A stretch of DNA of 64,000 nt, taken from Adineta vaga. Its lineage: Eukaryota; Animalia; Rotifera. The stretch lies in contig CP075492.1 in NCBI GenBank assembly GCA_021613535.1, forward strand, positions 18,290,001 through 18,354,000, written 5' to 3'. The position numbers and the translations under genes are program-made. The notes beneath the pieces were generated by a model. The model saw only the letters and a list, made by a program, of their open reading frames with translations, had not been told where the DNA came from and made no database searches. This document shows positions 3,667 to 18,589 of the stretch, piece after piece (the first letter of the stretch is position 1; every line of letters begins with the position of its first letter).

Positions 3667-6605
3667 TAGGGTACTGCCAAATGGTCCCGGTCCCGGTTCC
3701 ACGGGACCGGGAACGGGACCAAAATTATACACTTTTAACGGGACCGAGACGAGACCGGGAGCGGACTAAAACTTGGTGATTGGTCCCGTAAATTTTTAGT
3801 GTTCAGTTGAATATAAATTTTAGTGTTTTTTATCAGCGATTTGTAGTTATCCGTCCATATAATCGAAAATCTTTTGTAGATTCAGATTGTAATAATGGAA
3901 AATTCTCAATATATACTAAAGAACATAAAAAAAATAATATAGATGAATTTAATTCGCTAACAATTCAACCATTCCTTTATCATCTGCCTCTATAAACAAC
4001 GAATAGATATATACCACTGATTCTTTTGTATATAGTAATGGCGAGTCGAGATAAATTTTGAATTAAAAAGTTTTTTTCAAGACATTGAATATGGTAACAT
4101 CAACTATTTATACTAAACAACAAATTCGGGATATGATGCAAAAAGAAAATTCACGTTTAGAGTTTCATAAACCAAAACATGTAAAAAGTCAGAAATGGAA
4201 CAATTATTTACAAGTTTTTATTGATGGTATTGGTCAACATTTTATTTCATGTACAAAATGCCATTGTATTCTTGCATGGAAATCAAACGATGGAACTAAT
4301 GTTATGGATAAACATGATAAAGCGTGTAAACAACATTTACCGTCAGCATCTACACAACAATCAATTAAATCATTTTATTCAACAAATACTAATGTTAATA
4401 AACAATTAATTAATTCAACAAAACGTAAAATTGCAGATTCATTAGCAGAATGTTGTGCAACAGATAATTTACCATTTGATATCGTTAAAGGTGTTGGATT
4501 TAAAGCATTTACTGGAAATTTATTAAAAATCAGTCGTCAATTAGGTTCATCTGTGTCAATCGATGAAATTCTTCCTGATTCAACAACGCTAAATTAAGAC
4601 TATCTCTCTGCTATAGATTCTTAGCATGATTATTGTGTTTGAAATTTTAGATCAGTCGACATGTTGATAATATATATAATTTTCGCAAAGAACAATTAAT
4701 TCAATATTTAGCAAAAATGAATAGCTATACAATTACAGTTGATTTTTGGACTGATTCAAAGACCAAAATACATTATGGTGGTATTACTATACATACATAT
4801 TCAGAAGAACATGGTCTTCTAGTTTTTGTTCTTGCATGTAAACCATATGATTTACCAAGTCAATCATCTGAAAATATACGAATATTTACAGATAAAATTC
4901 TTCAATCATATGGTTTGGTTTTAGGCAAAGTGAAATATGTTGTTAGTGACAACGAAAATAAAATGCGTTGTTCATTTAGAAGCAATATTATTCGTGTTGG
5001 ATGTTCAACACATTTTATTAACAAGATTATTGAACATTCTCTATGTAAAAAAGATATTGATTGTGATGTCATCCAACAGTTATTCAATGATATTCATGAT
5101 ATTGTTGTTTATTTAAGATCTTCTCATGTTCAATCAAAATTATCTAAAAAGCTACAGCTATTTTCTAAGACCCGTTGGAACAGTGCATATCATATGATAT
5201 CTAGTTTTGTTGATGTTTATCCGGAATTAAGTTATGTTATTACCGATCAAGATCGAAAAGCATGTCTTGGTGGAATTGATTTTGACGAAGTAGTATCACT
5301 TGCTAATTATCTCAAACATTTTGTCGATGCAACTGAATCATTAAGTGCCGAAAATAGTCCAACAATTCACTTAGTTTTACCATATAAACAACGTCTTTTA
5401 AATTTATCTAAAGCAAGTGAAAATGAATTTGAATCAATGAAAAAATTCAAGAAATATTTCCAAGATCAAATTGCAACATATTGGGAAGTTGATGATATTC
5501 ATTATTTAGCTGTTGTACTTCATCCTAACATGAAAAATTTACAAAAATATTCAAATAAAGATCGAAAAAAAGCTTATGATTTGTTAAAACGAGAAATTAA
5601 TCAACGACATTGTAAGTTATATTTATGTTTTAGCAACAATAAAAGGATTTTCATATAACATTATATAAATATGAATTTTTTTAATGTTTCAGCTCATCAA
5701 TCAACAGCTGCTGTTGATCCAGAGCCTCAACCACCACAACAAACATATTTAACAACAAATGATGTATTATCTGAATGTTTTGATCAACCTGGTGGAACTG
5801 GTACACAAACTAATGATGAATTTAAAAGATATTTACAATCAACCGATACATTAGTTGGTAATGAAGATTTATTAACATTTTGGACAAGACAGAAGAATTT
5901 ATATCCAACACTTTATTCAATAGCCTGTGAAATTCTCATTGTTCCAGCTAGCAATACTGCTGTTGAACGTTTATTCTCAGCGAGTGGTCAAGCAGTAACA
6001 AATGTACGAACCCGATTATCTGCTCAAAAATTAGATAAATTAATGTTTATCAAGAAAAATTTATTCATTTTGGATAAAATATTTGGTAAAACTCGAAAAT
6101 TAAATAGTAATGGTCTTTCTATTTGTTCAACGGATCAAAAGGGTGAAAAACGGTCACATGAAGGTTCATCAAGTGATGATGATAGTGAGATTTTTTATCT
6201 TACTGATGATGACGATAAAGATGAAAATTTATAAAGATAAATTAACAGTGTTATTTGATTTGGTATACATGTTTGTATTTGTTTTGTTATTTCTAATATG
6301 AACAATTTAGTATCTTTTTTTGTACTTATTTATATTTAAAAAGGGTTTTGAACATGCTTGAAAATAAAAAGTAAATTTGATGACTGGGCATCAGTACTGC
6401 GAAAAAAATCCCTGTCTTACTACTGTAGCCTTTGATTCTGAAAATATACCAATCTATAAATGGAAATTAGATTCATTATAAAAATTCACGGGACCGGGAC
6501 CGGGACCAGTAAAAGAATTTCAACGGGACCGGGACCGGGACCAACAACTTTTCTACCGGGACTATAGCGGGACGGGACTAAAAAAAGTGATTTTGCAGTA
6601 CCCTA
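3667..6605 (+). mobile_element. hAT-superfamily DNA transposon, full length
   Basis: 16-bp TIRs TAGGGTACTGCCAAAT / ATTTTGCAGTACCCTA (15/16 match), many subterminal CGGGACC repeats at both ends, internal transposase. No 8-bp TSD (TAGGCAAT vs ATGGCGGT). Confidence 0.95.
4091..6234 (+). CDS. hAT transposase, 3 exons (4091-4588, 4651-5611, 5693-6234); first donor reads CT not GT
   Basis: BED-finger-like CTKC...H, ITVDFWTD, VSDNENKM, CSTH, TRWNS, PASNTAVERLFS dimerisation motif; exon phases join in frame. Confidence 0.9.
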
Positions 6606-6657
6606 ATGGCGGTGCGTCTCATAGTCGAGATGATTAGACATATCGAGGTGATTACCA

Positions 6658-8565
6658 TCATAGAGCGCTTATATATTTCGCCAGACGTGTGATTGCTTCA
6701 TCGAATGGCTGATTACCGAATCTAACACGTAAACCGGTCAGATGGATGTCAAGCCATGGTTCAGCCTGATAGTTCTCATCGATGTACAATGCTATTATTG
6801 GAATTTTCAGTTTAGTGGCATAAGTGGCTTGAACACGACATGAATCACTTTTTGTACAATAATTCTCCGAAATAACCATTAGTACCATACTTGCATTTGG
6901 TATCGCTATCGCTATTTCTTCCCAACAATCGTCTGATAGACAATGTCCATCTTCATCGATCCATACCGAAATCAAATGTTGTTTGAGAGCAGCCACAACC
7001 GATCGACAGAAAGTCACATCTCGATGTGAATACGAGATCATTGGAGATTTCAACTGGGATACTTTAGCTACTTGATCGACGTTCAAAGTCGGTGCTTTGA
7101 ACTTATCGAGATACACAAGTATTCCATCAGCAGCCGCTTTGACAGTCATTAAATTATTTCTTAAGGATAGCGGAATGAATGCTTCGGTATTCGCGGTCGA
7201 CTCATTGGAAGCTTGTGTAACAGCTGCAAGAAATACTTCGTTTTCGTTCAATTTCGACTGAACAGTAGGACGAAATGCAAGACTACACATTATGTTATAA
7301 AGTGCTAATCGAATGAGATGCTTGACAAATAGATCGTTGGGTTCGACAACATTATGCTCGAGGAAAGATCTCATGAATAATGAGAGACCGCCGAGCTCAC
7401 AGCTGTCTAATATATACTTCGCTATATTATCATTGACAAGCATTTTAGCAAGAGATACCAAGTATTCGTAGAGATGACCTGTTGTGGAACGTAAATTGGC
7501 AAAAGTATTTGCTTCATGAATCTTCTGAAGTACGAAATCAATCGCAGGTTTGAGCAGGGCCGGAGTGTCGACTTCATTGATTGTAGCTACGTTTGCATAG
7601 ATTCGGGGATAAAATGAATACGTAAATGGAGAACGTTTCAATGTTTCGGACAAAACTGTTTCAGATTTGCGTAGTGTTTCAATGGCATTCGCGTTATTCA
7701 AGGCTATAATACCTTCTTCACACTGACTCACATTAGCAATAGTGATAATCAGCAGTTTAAGCGGGTCGGTGGCACTATTTCGTTGACAAATCGAATCTAA
7801 CCATTCGACGAGTTTGCTGGGAAAACCCAGTCGAACCATCATTGGTAGCATATTCTTGCTATCTGATACTGCGACGAGAGCTACGAAAGTGAGTTGAATG
7901 CATTCGATTCGTGCTCCGTGTATTGTTGTATTAGTAAAGAAGTGATCAATAAAGGTAATAATTTTCTGAATGGTCTGATCGTGTTGTATTTCATATAAGC
8001 ATTTATGAGTAGTGTATTCTGAGAATCTCATATTCTCCATTCGTCGACTATCCGACCATACGACAGCTCTGAGCAATAGGAGAAAAATTTTGATACATGT
8101 AACGAAAACCGTCTTATCATTCTCACCACCCAAATAGGCAAAGCTCTCATCAGTACTGAGACCGCTTATGGCCATCTGGTAGCATTCCGTTATTGATACA
8201 GATCCTCTTTCTAATGATACGGCAATCTTCTTAGAAACCATCTCCCAAAGTTCTGCCAAAATGGTTGAAAATATAGAGTAGTCAGGCAGCGAAGCTGAGA
8301 ACGCAATTAAAATGTTACAAAACCGAATGAATATGTTTGGTAGCCCAATTTCCGCTATGTATTGGTCTGATAGCAGCCGATATCGAATTGCGGGATTCTC
8401 CAGATGGTCTTTGACGGCTGAGAGTATACTGTGTATTTCAGTCGCATCAGACGGGTTCTCACGTAACTTTGTGCACAAATCGAGACGCTCGAGTAGTATC
8501 TTGAGTTTCTCTAGATCCATAATGTTCTCAGTATGAAGGGCGGTACTAGCCTGATGGTCCGACAT
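6658..8565 (-). CDS. Intronless protein: helical/ARM-like N-terminal region plus C-terminal TIR (TIR_2-type) domain
   Basis: MISYSHRD...VWID...WEEIAIAI...LMVISENY...SDSCRVQATYA...IPIIAL...PWL is a typical TIR_2 pattern. First ATG at 8565. The ARM call is inference from helical composition. Confidence 0.85.
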   Translation of the reverse strand: MSDHQASTALHTENIMDLEKLKILLERLDLCTKLRENPSDATEIHSILSAVKDHLENPAIRYRLLSDQYIAEIGLPNIFIRFCNILIAFSASLPDYSIFSTILAELWEMVSKKIAVSLERGSVSITECYQMAISGLSTDESFAYLGGENDKTVFVTCIKIFLLLLRAVVWSDSRRMENMRFSEYTTHKCLYEIQHDQTIQKIITFIDHFFTNTTIHGARIECIQLTFVALVAVSDSKNMLPMMVRLGFPSKLVEWLDSICQRNSATDPLKLLIITIANVSQCEEGIIALNNANAIETLRKSETVLSETLKRSPFTYSFYPRIYANVATINEVDTPALLKPAIDFVLQKIHEANTFANLRSTTGHLYEYLVSLAKMLVNDNIAKYILDSCELGGLSLFMRSFLEHNVVEPNDLFVKHLIRLALYNIMCSLAFRPTVQSKLNENEVFLAAVTQASNESTANTEAFIPLSLRNNLMTVKAAADGILVYLDKFKAPTLNVDQVAKVSQLKSPMISYSHRDVTFCRSVVAALKQHLISVWIDEDGHCLSDDCWEEIAIAIPNASMVLMVISENYCTKSDSCRVQATYATKLKIPIIALYIDENYQAEPWLDIHLTGLRVRFGNQPFDEAITRLAKYISAL

Positions 8566-8845
8566 GACAAACAACGTATCGGAGAGAAGTTACTGCTTTG
8601 AAGCCTTTTAGTTGAGATATGGCAAATAGCATGTGCTTCTCATGCTCTCAACCGTTTTTTATCTTTTAAACGCATACCGGCAAAGAATAAAAGATTCGTG
8701 GCGCAATTTCTTATCAACAACAAACCACTGTCAACTCAGGTTGTAAAAGAAATGCTTTCTAAAGTGTCTCTACACGAGACTCCATTTGCAGTTATTCTCT
8801 CTAGATGTTTGATAAGATCTGAGTGACTGAGAAATATGTTTAAAA

Positions 8846-8910
8846 TAGGGATGGGAAGTTACCGTTACATGATATAGTAATGGTCTGCTAGCGATAACTA
8901 ACTACCCCTA
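8846..8910. mobile_element. 65-bp hAT-type mini-element (TAGGG...CCCTA)
   Basis: Imperfect TIRs; perfect 8-bp flanking duplication GTTTAAAA at 8838-8845 and 8911-8918. Confidence 0.75.
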
Positions 8911-9959
8911 GTTTAAAAAATAATAGGAGATCGAAATGGATGGATCTCATCGAATCGACTACGTTTTACTGTTGTTCCGTGGTTCTAAGAGCCATTTCCT
9001 TTTATTTCGTTTGGTTTATTGATCACATTGCTGGCGCTTTTTGAAAAAACGTCAAAATCTTCTACTTTAGCTTCGCATACATTTATATTACTGATGAAAC
9101 CCACGGTTCCAGTTATTGTAGTGAAGTTGATTCACAAATAATAATTGGTGCAGGGGTGCTCCGGGGGTGGACGGGGCTTACTCCTCGGAGATCCGTTTAG
9201 CCTCCGTGAATTAATCATCTCGAGCTGAATCCAGTGTATAGCGCCTTCCACCCACCGAAAAAGTCACGGATCAAAAACTGCATACAAAGGAATACAGACC
9301 GCCCTCTTAATAGATAGCTCAGAACAAATCAGCCTCAATTAATTTTCTGAATATCGCGTTCAATGTGTGGCCTATGTACTTCCACATTTGTTTAAAAGAT
9401 AGCTGAGTGAATCCATAGGAAACGTACCACTTTTTGGAAATAAGGTAACTTCACAATTTTGCACTGCTTTAACGGTTTTGATCATTCTGTCAGAAAGCAA
9501 CAATCCGAAAACGGTCGGTGGATAGAAAAGAAAACAAACTTTGTACGTAAAACGATGATGTCAAACTCATTCTTTCGAAACAGCTCTATTTTACCGCACA
9601 CTTTTCGAACTTTGACAGCTAATGTCAGTTCAGAATTTATAGGAAAAAGCTGAGTTGTACCGAAAGAATCAGTGTGATACCCACATCTTACGTACGAACT
9701 TTGGTACGCTTTCCACGGATTCACCCAGCTGAAGGAATTCTATATGAAACCTAATGGAAAGAGTTCTTCAAAAAATGACTATATGTGTCTTTCTTGATAT
9801 CAGGCTGTGGGTGTGGAAAAAGCTGAAATCATCATCTACCCACACCCACCCACACCCTCAAGATATGGAGCCAAAAGCTGTGAATTACTTCGAACCGTGT
9901 TCTCGTGAGTAGGGTACCTTTTTTCTAGAATTTACTGACATTTGCCTCTCGCTCCCACC

Positions 9960-12900
9960 ATGATCCGGAAAATTGAAAAAATTCAGAACATGGCTTTGTT
10001 TCAAGACTACGACGCATCTCAAGATCCTCCAGGGGAAGTTATTTTCCAGCCGTTGACACTAATCTACGGTAACAACGGTTCGGGAAAATCTACTCTAGCA
10101 GCCTTTTTCAAAACCCTACATCATACTACTTATATCCCTCTTTCTCTACCCGTACTTCATTATCCTCATGCTGATCAATACGCGAAGATCATTCTCGACA
10201 CTCCATCAGGTGACACGTCGTCTGAATATATTGCAAATGAATGGTCGCATCAGCCCAAAGAGGTGAAAGTATTCGATGAGGACTATTTAAATGGTAATAC
10301 GCTACTCTTTCAAGCCAATAAGGCGAAAAGCGGCTTTCACATGGACCCCAGGCATTCCAGCATAGCAGGTGAACGAAGTCGTTCGGGAATACATCTCATA
10401 CGGGCCACTCAAATTGCCACGTGGTGTTTCAATGTTCCAGAACCAAACGCAGTTGAAATTCGCCGTCTCATCGAGCGTCAACAGAGAATCCCTTATGACT
10501 TCTTCATACAATATCAGCAAAACACACAAAATATCGAAAACACGTTTTCCGCCTTGCTAGACAAACCGTTCGGTTTTGAGATCAACAATCCAATCGATAG
10601 ACAACACTGGATGACACTGGTAAACAATTCCACGCACGTTAATGAAGATGATTTGAAACAAGTACAAGACGCCTATGACCAGAATCATAACACGATCATA
10701 AGTGAGCGCAGTTTTCATTCTAAGAGGGATTGCACGAGGGGACAACCGACGCTGCTCAACGTCGTCTCTCGTAGTGGGCTGAGAATCACATGATTGATAG
10801 AAAGCTTACCTGATCTTCTGCACTCTTGCCGTTCTCTCAAACTCCTAATTTTTTATTTATGATAGTTTCCAGAAAGGAGGTGAAAACTAGAGAAAAAACG
10901 TATTTTTCTTGTCTTGTCATACTTTTGTTTCGGCTTCAACTGCGCCACGGAAGTAGCTAGAGACCTGAAATTGGGAGAGTGACTAGTTCATGCACAAATC
11001 TAGCCTTACTGCCAAAAATAGGCCTCCGTGACTCTTCCTGGCTGCGATAGGTACAACAGTCATTCTGAGACCGTGGAAAAAGTTGTGAAAAGTCCTCTAG
11101 GACAATCTGAAAATGCAGAGATTTTCGTGAGGTACGGTTGGCATCATTATGTTCGACGCTCGTTCATCTGTTAAACTGCATTATACGCATTTTGCGATAG
11201 CAACCAAAGTTATATGGAGCCGTTGAACCAAGATCCGCCAAAAGAACAGAATTTTCCTAACTGAATGTATTCTATCGTACACCATTCGACGCTGCACGCG
11301 AATATGGGATCCTCATCACGCAAAGATCTTTGCTGGAAAATGCTGGCACAGAAACATAAGGATGAATCAGGCGACAAATGTTAATGCACAAAGATGCGAA
11401 CCAGTAGTTTCCAGCAAAGATATTTTTGCGATATTAATCCCATATTCGTATGCAGCGTCGAATGGTGTACGATAGAATACATTTAGTCAGGAAAATTCTG
11501 TTCTTTTGGCGGATCTTGGTTCAACGGCTCTATATAACATGTTACCTCTTCTTTCTACCCCAAAATTCGTACATTATTGAAATGAAAATGGTGAAAGCTG
11601 AAGAAAAAATATTTCTTAAAACGGTTGAAGGGTTATACTGAGCATTGTTTGCCTCGTTGAAAAACTGCATCTAGCACAACTTACACTGCCCTAGACAAGA
11701 TCTATCTTCCCTGAAAGTTTCAGAAGTTTTCATTAAGCCACTCTGGAGGAAGTTCGGCAACAAGGGTCAGCAGGCTCAGAAACAACGATATTTTTGCGTT
11801 ATTTCCCCTAGCCAAGGTGACAGAAATCTGAAATTTCCGGGCGTTACCTATATGAGTTCGATTGATCTTATAACAAAAAAGTTATGAGGATCACAATGAC
11901 GACTGCTCAACGATTTAGTCAAAATTAGTACTTTTTTGGGTGATCCTCATATGTCCATCAAAATGTAATTGATTTCCAAACAATTATATACCATTCGATA
12001 GAGGAAAGATAGTCCTACAAAGTGATATTAGTACATCCATTCGTATCTCTCAATAACGTAATCTTTTTACATGCGAAATGAAGAAACCCTGATACAAGCG
12101 ATAATTTACTTTAGTGACACATGAAATTATGTTTCACGTTCAGAGCTCTTTTCGATTTTGCATCGTCTTGTTAAGTTCAAAATCAAATGAGATGTTGCAT
12201 TGTATGTGCTCCACATTGATCAGGCCAGGACATAATTTTGCAAATGTGACAAAATAATACAGGCTTATCAAGAATTTTCAAAAGCTATACCTTCGACCAT
12301 GTGTAACATATTTATGCTTTTTTTATAAACGATAATCAAAACAGAAAAGTGCTACCTAAAGCACATGGCGTGGGTGTGCGTGTAGAAGATACTCTCTTCT
12401 TCATCCACGCCCACACTCACACCTACCGTCACCCTAGACATCATAGTCTTCTCCGATCTAAAGATTGAATATCACAGTTTTGCACGTGAGCTATATAAGA
12501 CACACCAAGCAGCTGTAGTTACAACTTCTAATTTCCATTTAGGTAAAATCCAACAAATGTTTGAACGCGTCAATGTGTCACTCGGCTGTTATCGTCTAGT
12601 TATTAATAAATATCTAAGAGAATTTGCAACGGGTTTGCAGATAACTAGATTAGAGCTCAAGACGCAAGCAGTTATACGAAAGTATCGCAGGCGTGGATGG
12701 GACAGACTTAAATTTGATTTCAATGTGTACTCGCCCATAAAGCATTACTATGAGGGTGAATTTGTGCAGTGCTGCATCACCTTGAGAGGTCAACCCTTGA
12801 CGGATCTGTACCTGAGTGAAGCTGATAAACGAGCTTTTGCCATGTCTATTTTCTTCGCCAACTTGGTCGAGCAACAGAATGATCAGGAACAGATAGTCGT

Positions 12901-13745
12901 GATGGATGACCCAGTCACGTCACTAGATGCAAATCGAAAATCAAAGACTCTGCACTTCATCATCAACTTGTTCGAAAGACAATTAGTGAAACAAGTCATC
13001 GTGCTCTCCCATAACGCTGATGCTCTCCGTGACCTCTGGAAACTGGCACAGAAGAAGAAAATAGAGACATCAAAACTGCAGATAAATAAAAATCACACGA
13101 ATCACACATCTCTAGTCTCTGGTAAGGATTCTAAAACGTTTCGGCGGTAACTAGTCTCCTCAGTCCGATTTTAAAGATCTAAAAGGGTACGGCAGACCAT
13201 AGAAGAACATTCTTTTCAAAATTCAAAAGCCTATTGTTTATTAAGTGAGCTTAAAGATTGTACTTCTCTGTTTTAGCGACATGGACCTCGACAACATAAC
13301 GGGCTATCGCTATACGTCCGAACGCCAGTACCTCGAAGAATACTGCGAGCGTCCAAGTGAGCGCCTGCACGACAAGCGAGCAGTTTTCTTCAATATTCGA
13401 TACTGTCTGGAAAAAGCTCTGACCTACAATCCCTTTCTCAAGAGAGCAATGGAGGCTGAGCTGCAGAAACTGCACAACCCAATGTACGGCAGAGTAGTCG
13501 GAGTACTGGAAATCATTTTCAGGAATCATCCGGACTTTCAGACTAACAATCCGAGACTAGAAGCGAAGAAAGCTGAATTGATCACAGAACTTCGAGAGTT
13601 TGGAGCTGTCTCCGAATCCCTACATGCTCAGCCAGATGACCGAATCGACAACAAATCGTCAGCAGAACTAGTCCATCTGATCACGAGAGCATTTGAACTT
13701 ATTGACGATGCTTTTGGCCTTTCCTACTATTTCTTATCGGACTAG
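9960..13745 (+). CDS. RloC/AAA_13-like SMC-type ABC ATPase with C-terminal HEPN-like domain; exons 9960-10701, 12438-13146, 13277-13745 (639 aa)
   Basis: IYGNNGSGKST (Walker A), KVFDEDY, INKYL, LSEADK (signature), IVVMDDPVTSLD (Walker B/D-loop), VLSHN (H-loop), NIRYCLE...SESLH. GT-AG introns 10702-12437 (phase 1) and 13147-13276 (phase 2) give a 1920-nt open frame. Confidence 0.8.
11209..11538. repeat. Long inverted repeat (~140-bp arms, ~55-bp spacer), MITE-like, in intron 1 of the RloC-like gene
   Basis: GGAGCCGTTGAACCAAGATCCGCCAAAAGAACAGAATTTTCC... (11217) is mirrored by ...GGAAAATTCTGTTCTTTTGGCGGATCTTGGTTCAACGGCTC (to 11530). Confidence 0.9.
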
Positions 13746-14507
13746 GCATCAGAGTGAACGCTAGTTGGCAGCGACAGAGGATGAGTATTCATGCTCAATT
13801 TCTGTAATGAACTCAGTTATTCGAATATAGAAGAAACAGCGAGTATCACATAACTTTGCTCTTTTCTTTTAGAAAAGGATCAGCGAAACGATAGTTGAGC
13901 ATTATTGGCGAGTAGTAGATCATTCAAAGATGAGCAGAAAAAGAGTTTTTCAAAAGTGTCCTATATGGGGCATTAGACAGGTTTTTCGCCCAGTTCTTCT
14001 AAAAGCCTCAGTTTGAGTTCTAATATTCAAGGACAAGGTAAGAGAGTCATGCTTCGTTTGATCGTTTAGAAAGCATCGGAGCAGGTTGAAGTACGACAGT
14101 TATTGTTTCGACGAGCAAGACTTTCTACGGTTCTCAGTGCAAAGACAGAACACTTCGAAACCATATCTAGGAACTGTCTTTTCCGCTTACTTAATGACCA
14201 ATGATGTTCTAGACGCCGTTTTGAGCCTTATTCATGATTCTATTGACTGCCTGTGAGAATGTTGCAAAGAAGACGTACTATTTACCCAGACGATGTTTTA
14301 TTAGCGTTCAGCATCGTTCACCTTTAGTCGTCGTTGAATTACTGTTTGAGGGTGAGTGTGGGTGTGTTTAGAATAAATATTTTAAAGAATTCTATTTATT
14401 AATCTATAGGCTTTGTCCACAAAGATACACGTTTAAAATTCCGATAGGAATGTATCCACAAATACGCATTAATAAATACGAAAAATTTAGGGGTGTGAGT
14501 AATACCC

Positions 14508-14551
14508 GCCATGACCGGTTTCGACTGAATTTCACAGTCTCATCAGATAGC
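14508..14551 (-). ncRNA. Minimal type I hammerhead ribozyme (Penelope/Athena pLTR type)
   Basis: Minus strand GCUAU-CUGAUGA-GACUG(UGAAAUU)CAGUC-GAAA-CCG-GUC/AUGGC: full catalytic core, paired stems I and II, palindromic ACCGGU stem III. Confidence 0.9.
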
Positions 14552-14830
14552 TTACAGGTTGAACCTGATTACAAACCTCAATTAACTAAATTTATAAAAA
14601 TCTAGTCAATTAAAATTCCAATCGAATTCGATTGGCTTCTGGTTTAATCCTAAAATCACGGTAAATATTAGCAGAATTGTATAATTGAAATATTTTAAGT
14701 GTGTTATCTGAAATGAAAGAAGCGAATCATTGAATCTATGTCTTTTTAAGAATTGTAGACTCAAATGAAAGATTTTTTTGAAACAAAGAGAAAATTGATA
14801 TACGAAGAAATAGTTATATTGAAAGAATAT

Positions 14831-15413
14831 CTAAAGTGTGGTTGATAGTTTAGTTGTTGACTTCGGATTTTCGCTATCCATATAGACGATTCTATATTGG
14901 ATTTTTCGATGTTTGCATATCCAGTAGCAAGCAACTATAGTATGGCTTACGGTGCAGGCGAAAATAAGTAGAAGATAGCGTGGCTTAGAGAAAGAATTAA
15001 ATATGAGAAGAAAATGAATACTTTTTAGTTTTTCAATAATGATTTCATGAGGAACTTGTGAAAAGAGAAGCAAGCTAATTCTTACAAATTCATTTTATGA
15101 AGGTGAGAATAAATCTGTCGCTATCTTACCAGTCGAACTCTGTATCAAACAACTTGTCGTACAATGTTTTCCGACGCATTGGGTTCAATATATGGTGAAT
15201 CGTATGAAGGAAATTTGATTGAGTTGTTTCGCTTAGATCCAGACTTTGATCCCATTCGACTTTTGCAGGATCATATGTAGATGGGAATAAAAGCAATTTG
15301 TCGATTGATAGATCTGTTGCATCATTCATAAGAGCACGAGTTTCACAATGTCTAGTAAGATAAAATTGAGCATAAAGAGTTATTAGAATTTTTTTATGAC
15401 GGTGGAATTGCAT
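14831..15413 (-). CDS. Hypothetical 175-aa protein with C-terminal hydrophobic segment; 2 exons (15130-15413, 14831-15074)
   Basis: A 55-nt GTAAG...TTAG intron (15075-15129) joins two track ORFs in frame. Confidence 0.5.
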
Positions 15414-17368
15414 TTTTCTATTGGTAAATGACGAGATTGATCTAGAAAGCAGAAAGGAATTTCTATAGAAATGTTAAACAAAGAAGTTTCATTGAGTTTT
15501 ATTATGTGAAATAGTTCTATCGATTTTAAAGAAAATAGAATCAGATAGATATATAAGCGAATTAATTTGGAGAGAAATTGTTGAATTGTAAAAATGATCA
15601 AACAATTGTATATAAATCTACATATCTTGGCGGACCGATTGATAGCAAATTATCATATTTAGGAGTTGAATCTGTTATGTTATGATTATCAGTTGATATC
15701 GTCTAATAGAAAGAAATTTTGAATTATTGTAGTAGAAAAGTAGAAAAAAAATTAACTGACTGAATTATATTCCATGAATTCATTGTAGTTTTTATAGATT
15801 AAATTTTGATTGTAATTGTTTGCTAATGAACAAAATGTGATTGATTTCCAAGTTGTACATATGAATAACCATATAAGTATCAGAATTACTAGGAGTACAG
15901 CGAAGATTTTTAAATATTTGACTAAGTAGAGGAGAAATAAATGTTTATCAGATGTGGAGACATCTAAATCTTTGCATTGATTCACATCTCTAAATGTCAA
16001 TCTTTGTAGTAGATAACATAAATAATATTTTACTAAACAGAAAATCTTTATTTGTGTTTAATAATTCAAAAATAAATCATATATGGATACTCATTTTTAA
16101 CAATAATGCCATTGAGTGATATATAAAAAAGTAATTGATAAAGAAACGAATATTAAATATTGTATCAAACTTGATAATTAAATTGGATTCTGATAGTATA
16201 ATTTATTTCTAAAATATTTCAAAATCTAAGATACAAATGCTAATTAGCGAATATATAAATGAAGACAAACAAGTTATTTTTTTTAATTTTCTTATTATAA
16301 GATGATTTCTGATTTATTTTACAGTTTTGCTTATGAGTTTGAATGTTCATCTGATCATTTCACAGTAAAAGCTTCTTTAGACGTTTATGAATAAGTTCGT
16401 TTCTAGCATCTCGACGATTACGACTACCGACAATCATCTTAACTCCAGCTGCTGGTGTATTCCGAAAGACATTTTCATATACTCCATGCATACCTCGTTT
16501 AAATGTACGAAATCTTTTTCATGTTTGTAATGAATGAAGAATCGATCTTGGAACTGTTGGATATTTTCTTCTATTATATCTAATTGTAAAATCGCGTAGT
16601 TCTACGTTTATCGGCTTGCAGAAGCCGCCGGTGCTAGTCAAATTACTTATTTATTTTTAGTATTTGTTCTATCTGGATGTTTTTAGTGGAGGTAATATTC
16701 ATTTGTTGGGAGAACGAAAAAAGCACCTTTGGACAGAACACGTGTGCACAGTATTATCGATAAGGAGCAAAGGCAAACAACTCAGGTGAGTGCTGGTATA
16801 AACGAGTACGTATGATGAAATGCTTCGAACTTTTCTTACGCAGTTATGTAATATCAGCTTATAAACTGTGTAAGAAATCGAAGAAAAGCTTCAAAAGAAT
16901 TCAGCAGTGTAAAGACGCTGTAGAATTAAATAGCCGTCATTTAAGGGCATCCTACCAGTCTCTAATTTTCCTGCCCGCTAAAAGTGACCTTTTCAATGTG
17001 AGACTTGAGTGATCTCAGACGGGTGCTCCTTCTAGAAGTCAGCAGCTTTTTACTATCCAGATATATGCATCGTTTTTATTTCCCACAAAGGGAAAGACAG
17101 TTCTCCAAAAAAGAGTAGGATAGAACAAGTTTGTCACGAATTTCACTAACAAACTCTCAGCTCCGGAGGTCGTCGAGTCACAGTTAAGATAGCATGGTAG
17201 ATTCAGTGGTTATCATTTCAGAAACATCCAGTCATGTGCGGTCGAATTTGCGAAAACTGTGCTGTTATCTTTCATTTCTATAGGGAAACTGGACGAGGAG
17301 CGGTTTGCTACATTACTGTCAAAAATACATTGTATAACGCTAATCACGTTAATTAAAAGATACATCAA

Positions 17369-18589
17369 ATGCCCAAGAATATTCTTATATCAGGTGCCGG
17401 AATTGCTGGACCCACCGTTGCTTTCTGGCTTGTTCGTTATGGGATGAAGGTCACTGTTATCGAACGATCACCTCAATTACGCTCCGCAGGACAGACAATC
17501 GATATTCGTGGTACAGGTCTTGAAGTCGTACGGAAGATGGGCCTTGAAGACATTATTCGAGCAAGAAGCACTCAAGAAAAGGGTATCAACTTTGTAGATA
17601 GAGAGAATCGTACACAAGCCGCATTTCCTGTGGAGACAATGGATGGACAATCCTTCGTTGCTGAAATAGAGATAGTTCGAGGAGAACTTGCTACATTGCT
17701 TTATGAGCAGACCCGTAACGATGTTGAGTATATCTTTGGTGATAAAATAACTGCCATCGTAGATCGAGATGATCGAGTGCAAGCCAGTTTTTCAAAGGGA
17801 GCTGATCGTGAATTTGATCTGATCATAATTGCGGATGGATTAAATTCAAAAACTCGGGAACTCGTCTTCGAAAGTAGTACATCACCTATTCATCGTCTTG
17901 GTCAATATACATCCTACTTCTCGATCCCGTACGAAGAATCAGATGGCACTTGGTCACGTTGGTACAATGCACCTGGAGGTAGATGTATTTTGCTACGACC
18001 CGATGGTCAAGAAACCAACACAACTCGTGCATTTCTAACGCTCAGTAGTTCTCCAAATGGATTAGAAAAACTCGACATAAACAGTCAGAAAGCAGAGATG
18101 CACAAGTTGTTTGCAGATGCTGGTTGGGAAACACCTCGTGTATTATCTTCTATGGAGAATTCTAGCGATTTTTATTTACAAGAAGTCGCCCAAGTCAAAA
18201 TGGATGTGTGGTCAAAGGGTCGAGTCGCTCTATTAGGAGATGCTGGTTACTGTCCGTCACCAATTAGTGGTATGGGAACGAGTGTTGCAATTGTTGGAGC
18301 ATACATTCTTGCAGCAGAGATTGCTCACCATGAGGATCACAAAAACGCATTTGCTTCGTATGAAACTCTTCTTCGCCCATACATTACAAAGGCACAGAGC
18401 TTGCCTCCTGGCGCGCCGCATTTTGCAACTCCGCAGACTGAGTGGGGAATTTGGATACTTCATAAAGTGCTAAGTGTTGCAAGTTTTGGTATAAGAGTAG
18501 GAGCGGCACGCTTCTTTAGAAAGTTTTTGTCGCCTCCTGCCGAGTCTATCGAACTTCCAACCTATGACACACAGATTATTCGACAATAA
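17369..18589 (+). CDS. FAD-dependent monooxygenase (FAD_binding_3 type), intronless, fungal/bacterial-like
   Basis: ISGAGIAG, IIADGLNS and RVALLGDAGYCPSPISGMGTS fingerprints; 406 aa. Confidence 0.92.
   Translation: MPKNILISGAGIAGPTVAFWLVRYGMKVTVIERSPQLRSAGQTIDIRGTGLEVVRKMGLEDIIRARSTQEKGINFVDRENRTQAAFPVETMDGQSFVAEIEIVRGELATLLYEQTRNDVEYIFGDKITAIVDRDDRVQASFSKGADREFDLIIIADGLNSKTRELVFESSTSPIHRLGQYTSYFSIPYEESDGTWSRWYNAPGGRCILLRPDGQETNTTRAFLTLSSSPNGLEKLDINSQKAEMHKLFADAGWETPRVLSSMENSSDFYLQEVAQVKMDVWSKGRVALLGDAGYCPSPISGMGTSVAIVGAYILAAEIAHHEDHKNAFASYETLLRPYITKAQSLPPGAPHFATPQTEWGIWILHKVLSVASFGIRVGAARFFRKFLSPPAESIELPTYDTQIIRQ

Follow-up and report, generated by a model that had tools for sequence, protein, structure and literature searches.

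RloC carries the motif Arg-X3-Glu-X36-52-His, often with a Ser before the His, and in GkaRloC each of the substitutions R692A, E696A and H737A abolishes activity; a zinc-hook mutant of RloC is hyperactive (PMC2610378). In PrrC, His356 is essential for toxicity in yeast (PMC3025547), and the protein has an outside silencer in a type I restriction-modification (R-M) arrangement (PMC3458546). HEPN domains without the motif probably bind RNA and do not cut it, and Table 1 of the same paper lists the RloC family under 'Bacteria' (PMC3710099). RloC was present in none of 135 eukaryal genomes, its known range being bacterial and archaeal (PMC2610378). Our own literature searches, conducted on titles, found no published report of a eukaryotic RloC; the literature covered describes ATPase-HEPN toxins of the RloC type from prokaryotes alone.

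The gene described here lies in a 64,000-nucleotide stretch of the genome of the rotifer Adineta vaga (assembly GCA_021613535.1, contig CP075492.1, positions 18,290,001 to 18,354,000 of the forward strand; hereafter the window, whose numbering is used throughout). Its three coding exons encode a protein of 595 aa with an ABC-type ATPase head and a predicted C-terminal HEPN-like domain. Judged by sequence comparison the gene is RloC-related, but it is not filed as an RloC member because two defining features, the zinc hook and the triad His, are absent. Our preferred reading, held with moderate confidence, is that this spliced RloC derivative is an ATP-gated, RNA-binding protein, likely dead as a nuclease and most plausibly used in conflict or immune sensing.

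Family assignment, ATPase head and HEPN-like domain

The initial annotation, made from the sequence, had proposed an RloC/AAA_13-type ATPase-HEPN gene built from three open reading frames (ORFs), and profile searches bear out that ancestry. AAA_13 of Pfam matches ORF1 (E-value: 3.8e-6, under the family cut-off) and ORF2 (E-value: 1.2e-13), and both match PADLOC PDC-S06 (E-value: 1.7e-22). A HMMER search of 1.84 billion representatives gave 1871 matches at E ≤ 0.001, with only the query itself below 1e-30. From these searches 165 non-self proteins were retrieved: 152 are RloC-like, at least 700 aa long and equipped with CxxC, while 13 are shorter and match the profile of the others. Among the relatives obtained by word search, 4 of 16 are named 'wobble nucleotide-excising tRNase'. 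The profile of the 152 proteins matches the rotifer protein with 235 bits over aa 1-113 and 230-584, unbroken across the exon 2/3 junction. Exon 3 has no match in the Pfam, PADLOC and NCBIfam libraries and no sequence match in the PDB, but scores 29.0 bits against the C-terminal profile of the relatives (best shuffle 8.5, with 875 scored of 1000); this score is independent because the relatives were found using a query without exon 3. All named matches of exon 3 in the Atlas are AAA_13 sets. The best matches are not Rad50 or SMC proteins, an outcome that would have spoken against the annotation: the retrieved proteins are RloC-like, and Rad50 chains appear only at phmmer E ≥ 0.003. The relatives are spread over many prokaryote phyla (73 loci, in a collection of prokaryotes only), and several of the eight relative loci scanned have Tn7-like, R-M, Fic or Schlafen genes as neighbours. 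No close orthologue was found in the word searches, in a metagenome scan with P0001 or in the HMMER search.

The ABC/SMC ATPase motifs lie in order across the ORFs, as first annotated: Walker A (YGNNGSGKST) and an FDxxxxxxN motif in exon 1, followed in exon 2 by the signature LSEAD, the Walker B/D-loop VVMDDPVTSLD and the H-switch LSHN. Columns that are at least 90% conserved among the relatives are mostly retained by the rotifer protein: 10 of 12 for the N head, with conservative changes at the other two, all 16 for the C head (26 of 28 over both heads) and 3 of 4 for the HEPN-like domain (29 of 32 in all); at columns below 40% conservation, identity falls to 9/45, 12/81 and 8/76, respectively (29/202 overall). 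The annotation had listed SEAD as a deviation, which it is not; Ala occupies that place in 10 of the 152 relatives, and we rejected it as a crippling change. Two further deviations do hold. The CxxC hook, present in all 152 relatives of at least 700 aa, is absent, and the arm is shortened, the whole protein being 595 aa long as against about 765 aa for RloC. In the predicted model of the ATPase the heads are confident and the arm (aa 120-227) is of low confidence; the head matches Rad50/SMC by Foldseek (E-value: 2.6e-10), which points to a Rad50/SMC-like fold.

Both NIRYCLE and ELREFGAVSESLH, by which a C-terminal helical domain had been recognized, are located in ORF3. The top structural rows of the exon 3 model (pLDDT 86) in VIA are mostly HEPN-type (Z 7.5-9.9), among them Roquin, af_0298, sacsin HEPN, HepT, Csm6 and LsoA (Z 7.7-9.9), and the C-terminal fold is accordingly predicted to be HEPN-like. 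Within it R481, E485 and H556 are kept. Ala557, however, aligns with a near-invariant His, so that the catalytic triad Arg-x3-Glu ... His is incomplete and the HEPN motif is, as had been noted, non-canonical. This is the sole highly conserved HEPN column to be lost, and it corresponds to the second His of an HH motif that is kept whole in 134 of 152 relatives. The second His is conserved in 145 of 147 filled rows, in 50 of 50 GTDB proteins and in all 53 filled rows of 64 from metagenomes, whereas the first is replaced by Q, Y, S, K and other residues in some relatives. Because the second is near-invariant while the first varies, we regard the second as the triad His by homology. The alignment register around HH is backed by V551/Y, S552/S and L555/F (rotifer/relatives).

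Transcript structure and reading frame

Read evidence consists of contigs from eight runs among 19 listed, and contig assembly drops rare forms. The RNA status of runs is predicted, backed by X1, X2 and X5, which show no coverage across the greater part of intron 1; other runs are DNA-like or give no coverage of the junctions, X6, X7 and X8 reaching only the 3' end of the gene. The three ORFs (9939-10793, 12386-13150 and 13245-13745) were found where the annotation had placed them and are joined by splicing, although into 595 aa instead of the 639 aa first proposed. Both GT..AG introns are spliced, as claimed, in up to three studies. The joint 10701>12543 across intron 1 is found in X1, X2, X5 and X11 (4 of 8 runs, three studies), in X11 as a loose end identical to the tail of exon 1; X9, a DNA-like run, is unspliced; intron 2 is spliced from the donor at 13122 to 13277 in X1, X2 and X11 (3 of 8 runs, two studies).

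The length of the product depends on two letters of a CT repeat (Table 1) that are present in the window and missing in all four covering runs, namely X1, X2, X11 and the DNA-like X9 (three studies). With the window letters the spliced frame reaches a stop at 447 aa, the length of the NCBI model I4U23_016676 (Adineta vaga, on a 20-Mb contig), which is 100% identical to the exon 2 peptide; the two extra letters thus shortened the public model and hid the HEPN domain. With the read letters the frame runs to 595 aa, and the product is accordingly one 595-aa protein. An assembly error is the likely cause of the surplus near 13109-13113; there may instead be a rare allele, because contigs drop variants and X9 is maybe related to the assembled sample. 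The analysis therefore corrects the public A. vaga model, in which a 2-nt difference had concealed a domain.

The 639-aa model requires an acceptor at 12437 and a donor at 13147, and was rejected: its frame is open on paper, but the sites are used by none of the eight runs. The annotated mismatch of phase between the donor 13122 and the acceptor 13276 exists with the window letters and disappears with the read letters, which put the junction in frame; since the reads lack the two letters and the frame stays open, 13122 is the real donor. The proposed choice between ATPase-only and full-length splice forms is explained by the same 2-nt difference. No run shows an ATPase-only form or a micro-exon within intron 2, and both were discarded, although a minor isoform or allele giving an ATPase-only product is possible because contigs drop rare forms. 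Coding single-nucleotide polymorphisms number three (one Ala>Thr, the others synonymous), too small a sample for a test of selection.

Table 1. Features of the RloC-like gene of A. vaga (window coordinates)
Feature	Coordinates	Strand	Remarks
5' untranslated part, exon 1	9785-9959	+	X1 contig starts at 9785, X2 contig at 9802
Coding exon 1	9960-10701	+	N half of ABC/Rad50-like head and shortened arm without hook
Intron 1	10702-12542	+	1841 nt, GT..AG, phase 1, 39% GC
Coding exon 2	12543-13121	+	C half of ATPase head
CT repeat	13109-13113	+	2 extra window letters relative to reads (X1, X2, X9, X11)
Intron 2	13122-13276	+	155 nt, GT..AG, phase 2 in read-supported form
Coding exon 3	13277-13745	+	HEPN-like domain; stop 13743-13745
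3' untranslated region	13746-15459	+	reaches 14387 in X2, 15459 in X1

An upstream ORF of 15 codons (9865-9912, + strand) lies inside the transcribed 5' leader and, going by its sequence, could damp translation of the RloC-like gene. Intron 1 contains a hairpin (11209-11538) that resembles a miniature inverted-repeat transposable element, with 138-nt arms that are 89% complementary; no 14-mer match to it was found elsewhere in the window. No Rfam or tandem-repeat match was found. The motif GTGGGTGTG/CACACCCAC occurs at 9807, 9841, 12370 and 14358 (close to where the gene starts, within intron 1 and within the 3' untranslated region) and at five other window sites, and in the DNA run X9 many other genomic contigs end at two of these sites.

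Relatives, origin and surroundings of the gene

Two unnamed proteins group with the rotifer protein: P0023 (505 aa, hook-less and N-terminally partial) and P0046 (200 aa). Support is 97/81 for the rotifer protein with P0023 (54 rows), 98/96 for all three on the C head (43 rows) and 99/97 for all three under a mixture model (26 rows), in trees without Rad50 rows. The rotifer branch is long (0.8-1.56), as are those of the other two, and long-branch attraction is therefore possible for this clade. P0023 reads VSKHLHG where the rotifer protein reads VSESLHA, so that the second His is lost in both (Gly in P0023), and a terminal FGLS[FY] is common to the two and found in no other retrieved protein. 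R481, E485, G511 and H556 are matched in P0023 despite an identity of 26% over the HEPN domain. P0046 covers exon 2 almost exactly, as counted without gaps from anchors; its Met-stop end falls at the codon that intron 2 interrupts, and its Ser-Glu at the one interrupted by intron 1. These ends would be compatible with a donor of phase 2 and an acceptor of phase 1, and the likeness to exon 2 suggests an older spliced family. Searches of viral contigs and of metagenomes (63 loci, none encoding them) did not reveal in what genomic context P0023 and P0046 lie, and neither did a search of phages, made for P0023 alone.

The nearest placed prokaryotic group comprises Bacteroidota and Bacillota proteins; the 54-row tree leaves this unresolved, and no donor is named for that reason. 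The GC content at third codon positions (GC3) of the RloC-like gene is 0.465, against 0.10-0.38 in 10 other window ORFs, and together with the GC-rich introns this makes a secondary transfer from another eukaryote possible. A bacterial RloC-like subfamily is the likely source of the gene, which would have arrived by horizontal transfer, possibly through another eukaryote. A GC-rich island at window positions 6600-14000 (about 37-41%, where the window as a whole has about 31%) spans this gene, its introns and a neighbouring gene with a TIR domain.

That neighbour is an intronless ORF of 643 aa (6658-8589, - strand) bearing a C-terminal TIR_2 domain (E-value: 5e-15). It stands head-to-head with the RloC-like gene, and the same transcript-like runs cover both. 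The ORF reads SCRVQATYA, whose Gln sits at what we take to be the usual place of the catalytic Glu of TIR NADases; it is possibly a second disarmed conflict enzyme. Beyond it lies a hAT transposon (3667-6605). Its terminal inverted repeats measure 11 nt, it shows no clear duplication of the target site, and its transposase occupies three ORFs. The X1 and X2 contigs run on before 6606 with letters missing from the window and an X9 contig begins at 6606, which suggests that the hAT insertion is polymorphic. On the other side, an intronless ORF (17357-18589, + strand, 410 aa, GC3 0.32) encodes a flavin adenine dinucleotide (FAD)-dependent monooxygenase (FAD_binding_3, E-value: 6e-20) and is a possible further foreign gene.

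Interpretation and comparison with known systems

If the preferred reading is correct, ATP would dimerise the heads in the manner of ABC/Rad50 ATPases, with a nucleic-acid ligand driving the process. The HEPN dimer would thereby be repositioned and would bind or hold tRNA-like RNA via the kept Arg and Glu, without cutting it efficiently. Loss of the His would make a hook-less toxin tolerable in a cell without an R-M silencer, and conflict or immune sensing would be a likelier role than DNA repair. In a Pfam scan of 25 window ORFs no R-M gene was found (TIR, hAT, FAD monooxygenase and others were present), and the lack of an R-M partner would fit His loss as a taming step. The initial annotation had pictured a 'sensor-effector' nuclease, a picture that is weakened because the near-invariant His, essential in GkaRloC (PMC2610378), aligns with Ala557.

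Several observations tell against the preferred reading. The Z-scores of exon 3 lie below the helical-bundle bar of 13 and Foldseek returned nothing at E ≤ 0.001 for the exon 3 model; the low confidence of the arm counts in the same direction. The spacing from E to H is 70 in the rotifer protein and 39-68 in the relatives, with an insertion between them, and the local register consequently rests on the alignment. H556, which adjoins the lost His, could substitute for it. Hook loss alone does not force His loss, since hook-less bacterial relatives keep HH. The long branch means that the conserved motifs may partly predate the transfer, and RNA binding and an immune role are things that we only infer.

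It is somewhat unlikely, in our judgement, that the protein is instead an active or attenuated RNase in which H556 stands in for the missing His and the cutting of tRNA or other RNA on infection or damage is gated by the ATPase. The match of R481, E485, G511 and H556 in P0023 would suit such an enzyme, and bdelloids answer a fungal pathogen by up-regulating RNA ligases of foreign origin (PMC11258130), so conflict genes acting at the RNA level are in use; the RloC-like gene itself was unmatched in the part of that paper's supplementary tables that was searched. The lost column is nevertheless the most conserved His in three protein sets, and the hydrophobic register at 551-555 speaks against a shift by one residue. 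One would also expect toxicity from a hook-less active RloC (PMC2610378, PMC3458546), whereas complete transcripts were assembled from runs of several studies. A related scheme, rather unlikely in our view, supposes that RloC entered eukaryotes once and founded a spliced family of few members (A. vaga, P0023, and P0046, whose two introns sit at the same positions) without a hook, the HEPN site being rebuilt around the neighbouring His as a nucleic-acid-triggered RNase of animal innate immunity. If true, it would mean that an RNase L-like device was made from a bacterial anti-phage toxin.

The gene might also be of foreign origin, without any selected function and decaying although still transcribed; its 2-nt frameshift would then be a real null allele. 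Its long branch, the loss of hook and His, the frameshift in the reference, the deviating GC3 and the want of any close relative among the 1.84 billion representatives could be so explained. We think this improbable given 595 open codons, the retention of 29 of 32 highly conserved columns, the absence of the frameshift from all four covering runs, two synonymous changes among three coding polymorphisms (too few to test) and derived features common to P0023 that suggest long retention. Distinctly improbable is co-option as a Rad50-like ATPase that binds DNA ends in the repair following desiccation or radiation, the HEPN part serving as a scaffold. The predicted head would fold like Rad50/SMC, the RloC ATPase responds to DNA breaks (PMC3458546) and ligase E is among the foreign genes that A. 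vaga employs after radiation (PMC10809525). However, the DNA-bridging zinc hook is absent, the arm is short and poorly ordered, and neither induction nor the proposed link to DNA breakage or desiccation was found in the expression tables searched (partial tables). Bacterial contamination or mis-assembly, finally, is extremely improbable, as the initial annotation had argued from the introns. The raised GC of the region (about 40%) and the prokaryotic identity of all named or placed relatives (placed in a collection of prokaryotes only) would be in keeping with it, but the spliced joints already contradict it. X9 contigs cross the exon-intron borders at a depth of 86-100, similar to the TIR neighbour, which argues against contamination, and the NCBI model lies on a 20-Mb contig. 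The flanking ORFs encode a hAT transposase, ASC channel, 7TM, NHL, P450 and ankyrin proteins by Pfam, indicating that the region is rotifer DNA.

Bdelloids hold thousands of foreign genes. Such genes make up 8.3% of those of A. vaga (PMC10809525), which lessens the surprise of finding one more; the RloC-like gene was unmatched in one small supplementary file of that paper, and no AAA_13 row occurs among the 7,614 rows listed of the PMC12220480 table. A spliced and transcribed animal copy, together with a small clade that lacks both the safety switch and the catalytic His, provides a test case for the taming of a bacterial suicide toxin, and is a further addition to the anti-phage genes reused by eukaryotes.

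Compared with known systems, the rotifer protein resembles RloC (GkaRloC; AAA_13, PF13166; PDC-S06) in its split ABC head, its C-terminal HEPN-like domain with R-x3-E and its domain order, at 20-32% identity over head and HEPN. It differs in being about 170 aa shorter, in lacking the CxxC hook, in having Ala at the triad His column, and in its spliceosomal introns and animal host. An ATPase joined to a HEPN domain without a zinc hook is shared with PrrC and with hook-less bacterial RloC-like proteins. Eleven of the latter are complete (about 480-530 aa), all with HH; four examples, L058, L060, L062 and L118, have about 480-500 aa and keep R-x3-E as well. The ten included in the tree fall in two clades other than that of the rotifer protein. 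L062 (locus L062:2910-9218) sits between type I hsdS and hsdR, as PrrC does, and proteins of its type are possible intermediates between RloC and PrrC. Unlike these relatives and PrrC, the rotifer protein has no R-M partner and no second His. With Rad50/SMC ATPases it shares the head fold predicted by Foldseek, but identity is 10-16% (phmmer E ≥ 0.003), and it differs by lacking a hook and carrying a C-terminal HEPN-like domain. Eukaryotic HEPN proteins (sacsin HEPN, Roquin and the RNase L/Ire1 KEN domain) resemble it in helical fold, with Z-scores of 9.9 for Roquin and 8.3 for sacsin, but differ in architecture and ancestry, at 9-11% identity.

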